Shown: piece after piece, positions 10,406 to 46,162 of the stretch
Position numbering within the stretch: position 1 is the stretch's first letter
How the letters are laid out: each line of letters starts with the position of its first letter
From: a virus
Length of the DNA stretch: 64,000 nucleotides
Direction: 5' to 3' (one strand)
Virus record (IMG/VR): IMGVR_UViG_3300034110_001237
Location: 97,698 to 161,697 of that record
Notes under the pieces: model-generated
What the model was told of the DNA's origin: nothing
Seen by the model: only the letters and a program-made list of their open reading frames with translations
Database searches by the model: none
Program-made: the position numbers and the translations under genes

Positions 10406-10479
10406 GGCTGCTTGGCAGAATGGTCATGTACCGGATTGCAAATCCGAGTATGGGGGTTCGATTCCCTCAGCAGCCTCCA
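10406..10479 (+). tRNA. tRNA-Cys(GCA)
   Basis: acceptor GGCTGCT/AGCAGCC, anticodon loop TTGCAAA, T-arm GGGGG-TTCGATT-CCCTC, U73 discriminator, encoded CCA. Confidence 0.95.
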
Positions 10480-14760: not shown

Positions 14761-15285
14761 TTAATCAATTTCTAATCGTTTTAAACCATGTACTCTGGCA
14801 ATTTCATCAATGGCTTGTTGTTCAATAGAAGGTGTTGTTGCGTTATGGATAATCTCCTTATCCGTAAATCCATGATGAATTTTGTACGCAGTTTCTCCTG
14901 TAATTCCACCTTTATAGAGAATGTCTGCTCTTATTTGTTCTTTGTAATAATTTATGACAGGATGTTCGATGTTGGAAAATAGATCGGATATTAAACCTTT
15001 GTAAATCATGTTATTAAATTTTGTTATTTTTCGGTTTAAAAAAGATTCAAGAAATGATATGGCAAATGTGAACAAACCACCAAAAACAAAAAATGTCCAT
15101 AAATAGTTCATATAAAGATTATATTCTTCATCATCTAATATTGTTGCTACTTTTGTCCCAAATCCTATTGTCATCACTAAAAATAGCATCAGTATAACGA
15201 GTCCATATGATTTAATTTTATATTTGTAATCGTTAGGATTTTTTTTGTAAAATTCAAATCTTTCTAAAAATTCTTTGTTTTTCAT
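14761..15285 (-). CDS. two-TM membrane protein (paralog of 10532..11077)
   Basis: AAGGAG RBS before ATG at 15285; shared motifs. Confidence 0.8.
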   Translation of the reverse strand: MKNKEFLERFEFYKKNPNDYKYKIKSYGLVILMLFLVMTIGFGTKVATILDDEEYNLYMNYLWTFFVFGGLFTFAISFLESFLNRKITKFNNMIYKGLISDLFSNIEHPVINYYKEQIRADILYKGGITGETAYKIHHGFTDKEIIHNATTPSIEQQAIDEIARVHGLKRLEID

Positions 15286-15440
15286 GATACACTCCTTTAT
15301 TATTTTACAGTTTATTAGTAAAAAAAAATTAATCAAATTTATTCAAAAAACTCCTTGAAAGGTATTGATTGCTTCGTTTCTTTTTGCTAGAATGGCTACA
15401 TTGATGAGATGACAACTCAAAAGTCACTCAGAATTGTAAC

Positions 15441-15543
15441 GCGGATGTGTGAGCGTAATAGGAGAGTTGGCCGTCCGTCCTTGAATAAAGGTTGCTCTAC
15501 TGTTGTATTGGTAACGTAGGTTCAAATCCTACCATCTGCACCA
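15441..15543 (+). ncRNA. tRNA-like RNA with expanded anticodon arm
   Basis: acceptor GCGGATG/CATCTGC + A + CCA; T-arm GTAGG-TTCAAAT-CCTAC; no 7-nt anticodon loop; promoter TTGATT-17-TAGAAT 15365-15393. Confidence 0.7.
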
Positions 15544-15587
15544 AATTTCTTGATTGTTGTGATGGCTTGTGGTATAATCATCACATC

Positions 15588-15756
15588 AAACGAATTAGGA
15601 GCCTTCGTCAAAGAAGGTTGGATAGCAGCGGTGTCGCGGGCAAGCTATCAAGAAAGGTGAGAAATACTCCCTTTCATAGTAACAAAGTCCATCAGGGTGC
15701 TGTTTGCCTTGATTAAAACGCTTAGGTGAAGCGGTTCTTTGTTACGAACTTATTTG
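15588..15756 (+). ncRNA. unknown structured RNA, copy 1
   Basis: own promoter TTGATT-17-TATAAT 15550-15578; multibranch fold co-varying with copy 2. Confidence 0.75.
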
Positions 15757-15760
15757 TCAA

Positions 15761-15825
15761 TTAGCGAAGGAATTATAGTCCTAGTGGCTATGATTAAAAC
15801 GGTTAGGTGGACTGGCCTTCGTTAA
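15761..15825 (+). ncRNA. extra stand-alone copy of the 3-way-junction sub-module
   Basis: TTAGCGAAGG/CCTTCGTTAA outer stem; TGATTAAAAC-GGTT-AGGTG-GACTG-G core. Confidence 0.65.
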
Positions 15826-15880
15826 GACCAATTTTAAAGGTTGTTATTTACAGGTAATTGATGTATAATAACTTCCAGTT

Positions 15881-16053
15881 AAACGAATACGGAGCAGCAG
15901 TTAAATGTTGCTGAATGGTAGCGGTGGTCGGGCGAGCCATTGTGTGAAGGGGAGGTGATTTCTTAGTCCCTCTCTTAGCAACAAGGGAATTAAGATGTTG
16001 TTTGTCTTGATTAACACGGTTGGGTGAACCGGCCCTTGTTGCAAACCTTATTC
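15881..16053 (+). ncRNA. unknown structured RNA, copy 2
   Basis: own promoter TTGTTA-17-TATAAT 15841-15869; terminator 16059-16081; same loops as copy 1 with different stems. Confidence 0.75.
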
Positions 16054-16088
16054 CAAAGAGTTGTCGATGACAGCTTTTTTTGTTTTAT

Positions 16089-16263
16089 GCCCTATAGTCT
16101 AATGGATAATCATTGACAGACTGACAAATTAGTCAGAATCATTCAGGTTAAACTGAATGTGAAGTTGAAAATGGTAACTTTTCGGTTCATGCAAAACCGA
16201 AAAGGAGGACGCCACGTATGTATGTTGGTGGAGATGCAGGTTCGATTCCTGCTTAGGGTACCA
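16089..16263 (+). ncRNA. tRNA-like RNA with ~100-nt multi-hairpin insert in anticodon arm
   Basis: GCCCTA/TAGGGT + A + CCA; D-loop-like GTCTAATGGATA; T-arm GCAGG-TTCGATT-CCTGC; CATTGACA/TGTTGGTG stem enclosing four hairpins. Confidence 0.7.
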
Positions 16264-16286
16264 ATTTAATGAATGTGGAGATTATC

Positions 16287-16499
16287 ATGATTAAGAATAA
16301 CGAATTTGCAAGTGATTATGCTAAACAACTTGTATCTAACATGACTCTTGAACAACGCCAAATGGCATTTAAACACCTTGAAAGTTTTTTTGATGAAGTT
16401 ACAATTGCAACCATGAAATATGATGCACAATACATTGGTGAAGAGCGAGCAGCGATGGACCGTGCCCTTGCTGAGTTGGATGCTAAACCTTCTGTTTAA
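16287..16499 (+). CDS. hypothetical protein
   Basis: GGAG RBS before ATG at 16287. Confidence 0.7.
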   Translation: MIKNNEFASDYAKQLVSNMTLEQRQMAFKHLESFFDEVTIATMKYDAQYIGEERAAMDRALAELDAKPSV

Positions 16500-16571: not shown

Positions 16572-16682
16572 TTGCTGTAGGCTCTTGTAGCCTGTCCGAC
16601 CGGGTTGTGACCGGGCAGTACCAGACGGTACCCATTTAGGTGGAGTCAATAAGGCGTAGGTAACTGGTTCCTATTGCAGCAA
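16572..16682 (+). ncRNA. candidate multi-hairpin RNA
   Basis: closing stem TTGCTGTAG/TTGCAGCAA enclosing about six short hairpins. Confidence 0.55.
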
Positions 16683-16773: not shown

Positions 16774-16935
16774 ATGTCCAGAAGTGTAAAAGGCAGTAAA
16801 GGTTGTGGTTATGAATATTGGTCTAAACGTCCTATGTGCTATTCTTCTCCCGGTCGTTGGGCAAAGCAGAAATGCCATAGAATTGAAAGACAACATGATA
16901 AAGAGTTAATCAGAACTGAACTCAAAGATCTTTGA
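16774..16935 (+). CDS. 53-aa basic protein MSRSVKGSKGCGYEYWSKRP... (not in ORF track)
   Basis: AGGAGG RBS; Arg/Lys-rich. Confidence 0.75.
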   Translation: MSRSVKGSKGCGYEYWSKRPMCYSSPGRWAKQKCHRIERQHDKELIRTELKDL

Positions 16936-17086
16936 GTGGTTCTTACAGAGCAAGACCTGCATTAAGTGAAGACTGGCAGCTTGATACGGGAATTATACCG
17001 GCCCAGCGGAATAGTGGAGCGAGAGGTGTAAACCTTGACCTTAGAAGCGATGATTTCCGGTGACTTGGTGGTGGAATTAGAACCAC
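16936..17086 (+). ncRNA. candidate multibranch RNA
   Basis: closing stem GTGGTTCT/AGAACCAC; internal hairpins including GAGGT-GTAA-ACCTT; terminator 17104-17130. Confidence 0.5.
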
Positions 17087-45166: not shown

Positions 45167-46162
45167 ATGTCAAAAATCTTGACCGGCGATAGACCAACAG
45201 GTTCACTTCATCTGGGGCATTTTGTAGGTTCCTTACACAACCGTGTGAAACTTCAGCACTTGCACCAGCAAACTATTTTGATTGCTGATAATCAGGCGTT
45301 AACTGACAATATGGGAAATCCTACGAAAGTCCGTGATAACGTCATTGAAGTTGCTAAAGACTATCTGGCTTGTGGGATTGATCCTAGTAAGACCACTATT
45401 TGTGTTCAATCACACCTTCCGGCTATTGCCGAATTGACATTGCTGTATCTTAACCTTGTAACTGTCTCCCGTTTAGAACGGAATCCTACCATTCGTGATG
45501 AGATTAAAGCCAAGAACTTTGAGCGAAGTATTCCAGCCGGTTTCTTAGCTTATCCAGTAGCACAAGCCGCAGACATTACTGCATTCAAGGCCGATCTTGT
45601 TCCAGTCGGTGAAGACCAGCTTCCATTGATTGAGCAAGCGAATGAAATCGTCCACAAATTAAACACTCAGCTAGGCTTCGAAATTGTTCCATCCATAAAA
45701 GCTCTTACTTCAACAGTGGCACGACTACCAAGCCTTGATGGTAAGTCTAAAATGAGCAAATCGCTTGGTAATACTATCAATCTATACGCAAGCATGAAAG
45801 ACATTCAAAAGGCCGTCAATTTGATGTTTACTGACAGTAATCATCTTCGCGTTGAAGATCCCGGTAAAGTAGAAGGCAACGTGGTGTTTACTTACCTTGA
45901 TGCGTTTGATCCCGATGTGAATGAGGTGGCTAACCTGAAAGAGTTTTATCAGCGTGGTGGTTTAGGTGATGGCACTTTAAAAAAACGTCTGGTTGGTGTT
46001 TTAGAAACGGTTATTGCTCCTATCCGAGAACAAAGACTAATACTCAATACTCAGCATGATTTTGTACTTGATGTGTTGAAGCAAGGTACGTTTCAAGCAA
46101 AAGCTGAAACTGATCAAAACGTCAATGAGATTAAAGATGCTTTTGGTTTTTTTAAATTTTAA
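45167..46162 (+). CDS. trpS: tryptophanyl-tRNA synthetase
   Basis: ILTGDRPTGSLHLGH (HIGH), YPVAQAADI, VPVGEDQ, KMSKS. Confidence 0.97.
   Translation: MSKILTGDRPTGSLHLGHFVGSLHNRVKLQHLHQQTILIADNQALTDNMGNPTKVRDNVIEVAKDYLACGIDPSKTTICVQSHLPAIAELTLLYLNLVTVSRLERNPTIRDEIKAKNFERSIPAGFLAYPVAQAADITAFKADLVPVGEDQLPLIEQANEIVHKLNTQLGFEIVPSIKALTSTVARLPSLDGKSKMSKSLGNTINLYASMKDIQKAVNLMFTDSNHLRVEDPGKVEGNVVFTYLDAFDPDVNEVANLKEFYQRGGLGDGTLKKRLVGVLETVIAPIREQRLILNTQHDFVLDVLKQGTFQAKAETDQNVNEIKDAFGFFKF

Follow-up and report, generated by a model that had tools for sequence, protein, structure and literature searches.

A duplicated, modular structured RNA in the tRNA island of a giant-phage clade

The question raised by this locus is what a phage may do with two adjacent genes for a folded RNA whose copies are alike in their loops and different in their stems. 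The locus lies in a window of 64,000 nucleotides (positions 97,698 to 161,697 of IMG/VR record IMGVR_UViG_3300034110_001237, here G000), which forms the last 64 kb of a 161.7-kb record with an estimated completeness of ~50%. Within the window, copy 1 of the RNA occupies positions 15588..15756 and copy 2 positions 15881..16053, both on the + strand. The family to which they belong sits in the least understood region of giant-phage genomes, namely the islands of tRNAs, suppressor tRNAs and tRNA mimics that are thought to serve translation takeover. To our knowledge, the question of what non-tRNA RNAs do in phage tRNA clusters goes back to the description of species 1 and 2 of phage T4, and the RNA reported here, as a 65-nt module or as a 170-nt whole, offers a compact and tractable object for this question. 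The analysis below establishes copies 1 and 2 as genuine genes that encode a folded, non-coding RNA with a very well supported fold, and then weighs what such an RNA might do.

Fold and covariation of the two RNA copies

The two copies could be aligned from end to end, with identical loops and differing stems. When folded singly, both gave the same collinear multi-stem architecture, a five-way junction of helices P1 to P5 (copy 1, minimum free energy -55.2 kcal/mol, z -3.19; copy 2 with its terminator, -76.1 kcal/mol, z -4.82; z scores relative to dinucleotide shuffles). A preliminary description of this DNA had reported two ~170-nt copies at these positions, with collinear helices that differ in sequence around conserved loops. 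The sequence is as claimed, and the fold of each copy and the alignment agree with the rest. In this fold the 5' and 3' ends pair to form the closing stem P1, which carries one mismatch, located at equivalent positions of the two copies (U9/U in copy 1, C10/U in copy 2), just as had been noted. P2 is a hairpin stacked on P1, P3 ends in the nearly invariant tip A-GC-GGUG(N3-6)-GC-RA, and P4 is a variable purine/pyrimidine hairpin. P5 leads into a three-way junction (3WJ), the elements of which are P5a (a variable hairpin), the strand UAAAA, and P5b (a 5-bp hairpin with the loop RGGYG). The invariant core of this 3WJ can be written as GAUUAAAACG-hairpin(RGGYG)-G, and reads GAUUAAAACGCUUAGGUGAAGCGG in the module of copy 1 (15679..15745, + strand) and GAUUAACACGGUUGGGUGAACCGG in that of copy 2 (15978..16042, + strand). 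Across the family, in which the RNA length ranges from 140 to 175 nt, the core AUY...RAU-UAAAA-CGNYU-RGGYG-RRNCG-G is almost invariant and the stems around it covary freely.

Sequence inspection revealed neither a T arm nor a CCA end in the copies, and no credible open reading frame (ORF) was present in the gap 15337-16268. A 74-aa frame starting with TTG (15492-15716) crosses a tRNA-like 3' end and a promoter, and it is interrupted in three relatives by an insertion of ~170 nt. As to the extent of the locus, the earlier coordinates were correct for both copies, and they left out a solo 3WJ module at 15761-15825 and a terminator at 16055-16085.

Both copies are kept in five related contigs with 89-94% identity over the region, and the substitutions among these preserve pairing. 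In P3, GAUAGC/GCUAUC has changed to GACAGC/GCUGUC in relatives, and contig L006 has two double changes in P2 of copy 2. RNAalifold, run on a MAFFT alignment of 10 copies, predicted 46 pairs, of which 18 showed double changes. The same alignment was used to build a covariance model (R1), which scored copy 1 at 181.2 bits and copy 2 at 176.7 bits. Searches with R1 and with motif patterns then yielded distant homologues, with four in G005 (a 437-kb, 98%-complete phage record) and further ones on the metagenome contigs L143, L144, L151, L153, and L154. When 17 full-length homologues were aligned to the model, 96.6% of cells paired and double compensatory changes were found in 32 of the 46 pairs. 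As controls, 0 of 500 shuffles were as good, and sliding the 3' partners by 1-3 columns resulted in 38-49% pairing. The preliminary description had taken stem covariation around invariant loops as the mark of a functional RNA and had proposed to search other DNA with a covariance model built from the copies. Such a model indeed found homologues with strong covariation among them, and the doubly changed pairs in both alignments uphold the functional claim.

The homologues are confined to roughly ten uncultured contigs of one giant-phage clade. Whole-record searches of G000-G005 with R1 and with a second model for the 3WJ (R2, see below) uncovered no further hidden copies. The pattern AGCGGTG-N(2-4)-CGGGCNAGC returned only GC-rich chance matches on viral contigs, and R1 found no homologue in the 80 loci examined with it. 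Matches in Caldilineales and Anaerolineaceae metagenome-assembled genomes (MAGs), as well as those on L145 and L152, were likewise rejected as chance pattern matches (12-14 bits, or nothing at E<=1).

We also compared the region with Rfam 15 (4227 models), counting a covariance-model score at or above the gathering threshold as a match. Over the whole window only a tRNA-Cys at 10406 reached this level. With E<=10 over 15200-16400 there was no match on either copy, and with E<=5 the six loci with distant homologues gave flanking tRNAs and noise only. The copies had been described beforehand as a functional structured RNA of no recognised class, and this view stands, with no confident Rfam match at any of these settings and with the covariation reported above. 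ARAGORN and the tRNA model RF00005 gave nothing in 15588-16053, where ARAGORN also found no transfer-messenger RNA (tmRNA), and a scan for a T arm with CCA matched only the neighbouring elements at 15516 and 16236. In a blastn search of 50,697 GenBank phage records, the region and the 3WJ retrieved nothing, or three chance matches at E=10. Literature searches by motif string and on the subject of structured RNAs in huge phages turned up no account of the family.

Modules and transcription units

The RNA is built from two modules, a head (P2 and P3) and the 3WJ. We built model R2 from 13 3WJ modules, and this model scored 66.7 bits on the module of copy 1 and 83.6 bits on that of copy 2. It also detected a solo module directly 3' of copy 1 (15761..15825, + strand; 70.1 bits at G000:113458-113522), which adopts the fold, has no promoter of its own, and is kept in relatives. 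The R2 count was exactly three modules per record for G000, G001, G002, and G004, and four for G005. In an alignment of 20 3WJ modules there were 15 invariant columns, all of them within GAUUAA.ACG..U.GG.G....GG, and P5, P5a, and P5b covaried. The 3WJ stands alone at three sites, which are the window, G005:408080 (where the 5' half is unrelated and a terminator follows), and contig L141 (where the module has its own promoter; this contig is binned with a Flavobacteriaceae MAG). Other parts of the RNA vary as well. P4 is missing in two tandem copies of G005, so that this arm is dispensable, and a short hairpin takes its place in L144. Since the 3WJ of L154 bears a P5a hairpin of the solo type, modules have evidently been exchanged. 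That two old paralogues have been kept along with a solo module suggests a role for dosage or multivalency. This mix of head plus junction, junction alone, and tandem units is an unusual design for bacterial or phage small RNAs.

Each copy had been credited with its own TTG-17-TATAAT promoter, and we found this to be well founded. The sigma-70-type promoter of copy 1 (15550..15578, + strand) reads TTGATT-17-TATAAT with an extended TG, and that of copy 2 (15841..15869, + strand) reads TTGTTA-17-TATAAT; both match 10 of the 12 consensus positions. The hexamers of both are kept in the five related contigs, with a variable spacer in the case of copy 2, and the stretch from the -10 box to the RNA start varies. 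Comparable promoters (TTGnnn-16/17-TAnnAT) recur before every first unit, that is, before window copies 1 and 2, the tandem and the single unit of G005, and the units of L151, L153, L144, L154, and L141. These first-in-transcript units begin 7-30 nt 3' of the promoter. The window solo module and the second tandem copy of G005 are not promoter-proximal, and the solo module is probably part of the copy-1 transcript. Copy 2 is followed by an intrinsic terminator (16055..16085, + strand; an 11-bp stem and a T run in the fold) that is kept in relatives and does not overlap P1, and terminators also follow the L153 RNA and a weak G005 copy. Several RNA genes of the island open with shared transcribed words (GCTACATTGA) after TAGAAT or TAAAAT boxes (window 15398-15410, G005:393026-393040, and L154), a pattern that suggests a shared promoter or initiation cassette.

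The stretch occurs in DNA sequencing runs of metagenomes (lake, wastewater, soil, biofilm, skin, and food) and of one isolate, whose data set contained 88% of the sampled words. Three studies with RNA libraries yielded assembled contigs of 84-288 nt that map on 15495-16298. One of these spans copy 1 and the solo module and ends at 15828, and two end at the terminator (16080). Positions 15340-15470 were not covered by such contigs, which is no evidence of silence.

A further recurring feature is the proximity of tRNA genes. In G005, one promoter is followed by an RNA, a 34-nt spacer, a second RNA, 2 nt, tRNA-Cys and a terminator, and this unit lies in a region with 12 tRNAs. In L144 the RNA ends 1 nt 5' of tRNA-Met, and in L141 the solo module is followed, after ~80 nt, by tRNA-Asn and an amber-suppressor tRNA in an array of 7 tRNAs. 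RNase P cuts at the 5' ends of tRNAs, and where the RNA stops 1-2 nt before a tRNA such a cut would free it just after P1.

Possible roles of the RNA

What, then, would these RNAs do? With somewhat more confidence than doubt, we read them as paralogous, modular, stable RNAs of a phage tRNA and tRNA-mimic island that act in trans and bind one conserved partner. Structured RNAs that combine strong covariation with an almost invariant junction core, as these do, nearly always have a dedicated biochemical partner. The RNAs would be made as separate and abundant transcripts, with 3' ends set either by termination or by an RNase P cut at the 5' end of a downstream tRNA, and P1 would shield both RNA ends. 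They would then serve as a binding platform in which the invariant junction and the GGUG-bearing loops contact a single conserved partner, for which candidates are a protein of the tRNA or translation machinery, a host factor, or a small ligand. In this way the function of the RNA would be tied to the tRNA programme of the phage.

Several observations weigh against this reading of the RNAs as stable trans-acting molecules with one partner, or limit what can be built on it. Fitting the 17-sequence alignment to the model biased it towards structure; the independent MAFFT result and the single-sequence folds agree with its outcome. Because the family is narrow (about ten contigs, one clade), many of the seemingly independent changes are the outcome of few events. 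Among the unpaired columns of the 17 sequences, tertiary or pseudoknot covariation amounted to noise only. A tRNA gene lies close downstream at only 3 of about ten loci (at 1-2 nt in two cases, ~80 nt in the third), and release by RNase P is therefore not general. Finally, transcription is only weakly hinted at, since the RNA-library data consist of contigs rather than reads, may derive from carried-over DNA, and are neither strand-specific nor end-mapped.

We considered whether the RNA could instead act in cis, either as a put-like element for terminator read-through or as a protective or processing 5' leader of tRNA precursors. Position is what speaks for this. All first-in-transcript units start 7-30 nt after their promoter, a terminator and then genes follow copy 2 (in the relatives), the L153 RNA and the weak G005 copy, and three units are upstream of tRNAs, two of them directly and the L141 unit at ~80 nt. 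However, what lies downstream is inconsistent (a 76-aa ORF, a tRNA mimic, tRNA-Cys, tRNA-Met, or other RNAs), and in the window a 175-nt tRNA-like element separates the terminator from the ORF. Moreover, the solo module of the window and the second tandem copy of G005 are removed from the promoter, and a five-way junction of 170 nt, in which the head forms a second conserved module, exceeds what a leader needs, so that we regard a cis-acting leader as unlikely. The invariant junction could also be a small-molecule pocket, for a nucleotide or a signalling molecule, with the RNA working as a sensor or, through several strongly expressed copies, as a sponge. Aptamers typically show such an invariant junction core amid freely covarying stems, the module occurs several times within a transcript as well as within a genome, and tandem arrangement is known for some riboswitches. 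Yet among the loci compared there was no recurrent downstream gene class and no competing expression platform, no riboswitch family of Rfam matches, and the context suggests no ligand, which makes an aptamer rather improbable.

A self-cleaving or processing ribozyme that matures neighbouring tRNAs, analogous to the theta ribozymes related to that of hepatitis delta virus (HDV), would fit with the RNA abutting tRNA 5' ends at two loci, and small ribozymes beside phage tRNAs are documented (PMC10879173). We nevertheless consider this very unlikely, as theta ribozymes cleave at tRNA 3' ends (PMC10879173) and the RNA here lies upstream of tRNAs, as many copies stand without an adjacent tRNA and are closed by a terminator, and as release is already explained by host RNase P. 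Of the Rfam ribozyme models, including HDV-like/theta, hammerhead, twister, hatchet, and pistol, none matched in the window, in 15200-16400 or at the six distant loci. There is an equally slight chance that the RNA belongs to a known class from which it has strongly diverged, for instance as a tRNA derivative, a relative of T4 rnaC/rnaD, a domain like the Alu domain of the signal recognition particle (SRP) RNA, or a piece of tmRNA. Its place in a tRNA island beside tRNA mimics, similar to the place in which T4 keeps two stable RNAs, is in favour of this. Against it, the Rfam models of tRNA, SRP RNA, and tmRNA give nothing on the copies, ARAGORN calls neither tRNA nor tmRNA in them, R1 reaches at most 5.6 bits over the T4 tRNA/rnaC/rnaD region, and the T arm and CCA end are lacking. 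The GCGGUG of the P3 loop, which also occurs in SRP Alu domains, would be a point in favour. Resemblances to T-box GGGUGGNACCGCG, SRP Alu GCGGUGG and 5S loop E AUGGUAG, however, either fall in covarying stems or lack Rfam support and were rejected.

Returning to the reading as trans-acting RNAs with one conserved partner, we found no convincing complementarity of the RNAs to their neighbours. Pairing of the GGUG loops with the CACCA/NCCA ends of the mimics was discarded as an option, as it involves 4 nt only and the loop variants do not track the discriminator bases. A more specific proposal, which is speculative and to which we assign a low probability, is that the 65-nt 3WJ is a decoy or sponge, present in several strongly expressed copies, that would titrate a host factor or signal blocking the phage tRNA and translation programme. 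Its target could be a tRNA-directed defence enzyme, an RNA-processing protein, or a nucleotide alarm signal, and the decoy might cooperate with the anticodon-less tRNA mimics and the small basic phrog_7399 protein of the same islands. If true, the decoy module would give giant phages an RNA-based means of counter-defence or takeover.

The surrounding island and known RNA families

The family belongs to the tRNA/tRNA-mimic island of one giant-phage clade with genomes of ~320-440 kb. In the window, this island also contains tRNA mimics, which combine a perfect T arm and an acceptor stem with a CCA end and have no anticodon arm. Within 15365-15543, a 103-nt tRNA-like RNA (15441-15543) follows a promoter (TTGATT-17-TAGAAT) and a ~43-nt leader; this RNA has a perfect T arm, lacks an anticodon arm, scores a sub-threshold 19.3 bits with the tRNA model, and is kept in 5 of 5 relatives. 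Its acceptor stem GCGGAUG/CAUCUGC provides G3-U70, and together with A73 and CCA this makes up the alanine identity set, on which tmRNA also relies. A second element, at 16090-16263, consists of a tRNA frame (acceptor, T arm, and ACCA end) with a multi-hairpin insert of ~100 nt. It is unique to the genome of the window, lies between the terminator of copy 2 and the 76-aa ORF, and holds AAGGAGG and, after it, an ATG frame of 12 codons overlapping the T arm. In relatives, an additional degenerate tRNA, driven by a promoter, lies between the Ala-like mimic and copy 1 (L003 340-510, with equivalents in L005 and L006), and it scores 34.2 bits with the tRNA model at G001:128160 and G004:88840. Outside the window, G000:C1:48313-48620 carries a T arm and a GTGGTGG-ACCA end that ARAGORN does not call as a tRNA, so that this genome may have another mimic here.

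The ORF at 16774-16935 (+) encodes a 53-aa basic protein with four cysteines (P0001) that matches phrog_7399 (E 1.4e-10), and it is flanked by the structured stretches 16572-16682 and 16936-17086. In G005 its homologue is located between tRNA-Asn and tRNA-Met (G005:388669-388818), so that this protein travels with tRNA islands and is a candidate RNA-binding partner. Searches of Pfam and the Atlas gave no function for P0001, and PHROGs gave only phrog_7399, a family of unknown function. Dense tRNA arrays that include an amber-suppressor tRNA(CUA) are found at G005:C1:374000-390000 (L138) and in L141 361-3171, and the G005 array also has a tRNA with an 8-nt anticodon loop. In all, G005, a distant relative of the window's genome, has 27 tRNAs, which are all on one strand and include the CUA suppressor.

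PHROG matches to virion structural proteins show the phage affinity of the window; Terminase_6N (PF03237) was not found in any of five records, which says nothing on phage identity. The genome of the window uses the standard genetic code, and a recoded genome was rejected, as ORF statistics were no better with TAG, TGA, or TAA reassigned. A class I tRNA synthetase of the Trp/Tyr type is encoded at 45167-46162 (+; Pfam E 2e-53). Two of the loci, L146 and L154, are on a single metagenome contig of 1.86 Mb (Ga0308158_10000001; 1,859,102 bp), which thus holds the RNA locus of a relative and a further copy (125.6 bits). Since this second copy falls beyond the bounds of the 179-kb IMG/VR 'provirus' record that derives from the contig, the element is larger than the record, the element is integrated in a host, or the contig is chimeric.

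How does this family compare with known RNAs? The putL and putR elements of phage HK022 are promoter-proximal structured RNAs of ~65-70 nt with terminators after them, and they consist of two hairpins that act in cis on RNA polymerase. A put-like antiterminator position, near the promoter and with a terminator behind, appears compatible with most units of our family. There is no sequence relation, however, and unlike putL and putR the module is also found second in a transcript and inside a five-way junction.

The nearest counterparts are species 1 and 2 of T4 (rnaC and rnaD), for which we know of no function to date. Like the family described here, they are stable structured non-coding RNAs in a phage tRNA cluster beside a tRNA gene, and at G005 and L144 our RNA too lies in a phage tRNA cluster and abuts a tRNA gene, which is a likeness of context only. 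In contrast, there is no similarity in sequence or structure, the folds differ, and our family mostly has its own promoters. In a search of the T4 tRNA/rnaC/rnaD region (AF158101, 70.7-72.7 kb) with filters off, R1 gave no score above 5.6 bits. The T4 RNAs measure 119-139 nt and are presumably freed by tRNA-processing enzymes (GenBank annotation, AF158101). Because of its tRNA frame with a T arm, T4 rnaC is an analogue of the window's tRNA mimics (15441-15543 and 16090-16263) and not of copies 1 and 2.

Large, partly recoded phages have HDV-like theta ribozymes within their tRNA arrays (PMC10879173). These ribozymes resemble our family in being small structured RNAs in such arrays, and amber-suppressor tRNAs are also present in the arrays of our family. 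They adopt a double-pseudoknotted HDV fold, whereas the family described here forms a multi-way junction that is located upstream of tRNAs or alone. GOLLD RNAs are often found near tRNAs and in prophages, and ROOL RNAs were described with similar properties; ROOL averages 581 nt and GOLLD is larger still (PMC5737381). With these, our family shares a complex structure and a function that is unknown. GOLLD and ROOL are far larger and are represented in Rfam, with no match to the copies, whereas our family is 140-175 nt long, modular, and multi-copy. Altogether, these comparisons place the RNAs of the window in an undescribed family of narrow distribution that is of a known general kind, the stable structured RNAs of phage tRNA clusters.
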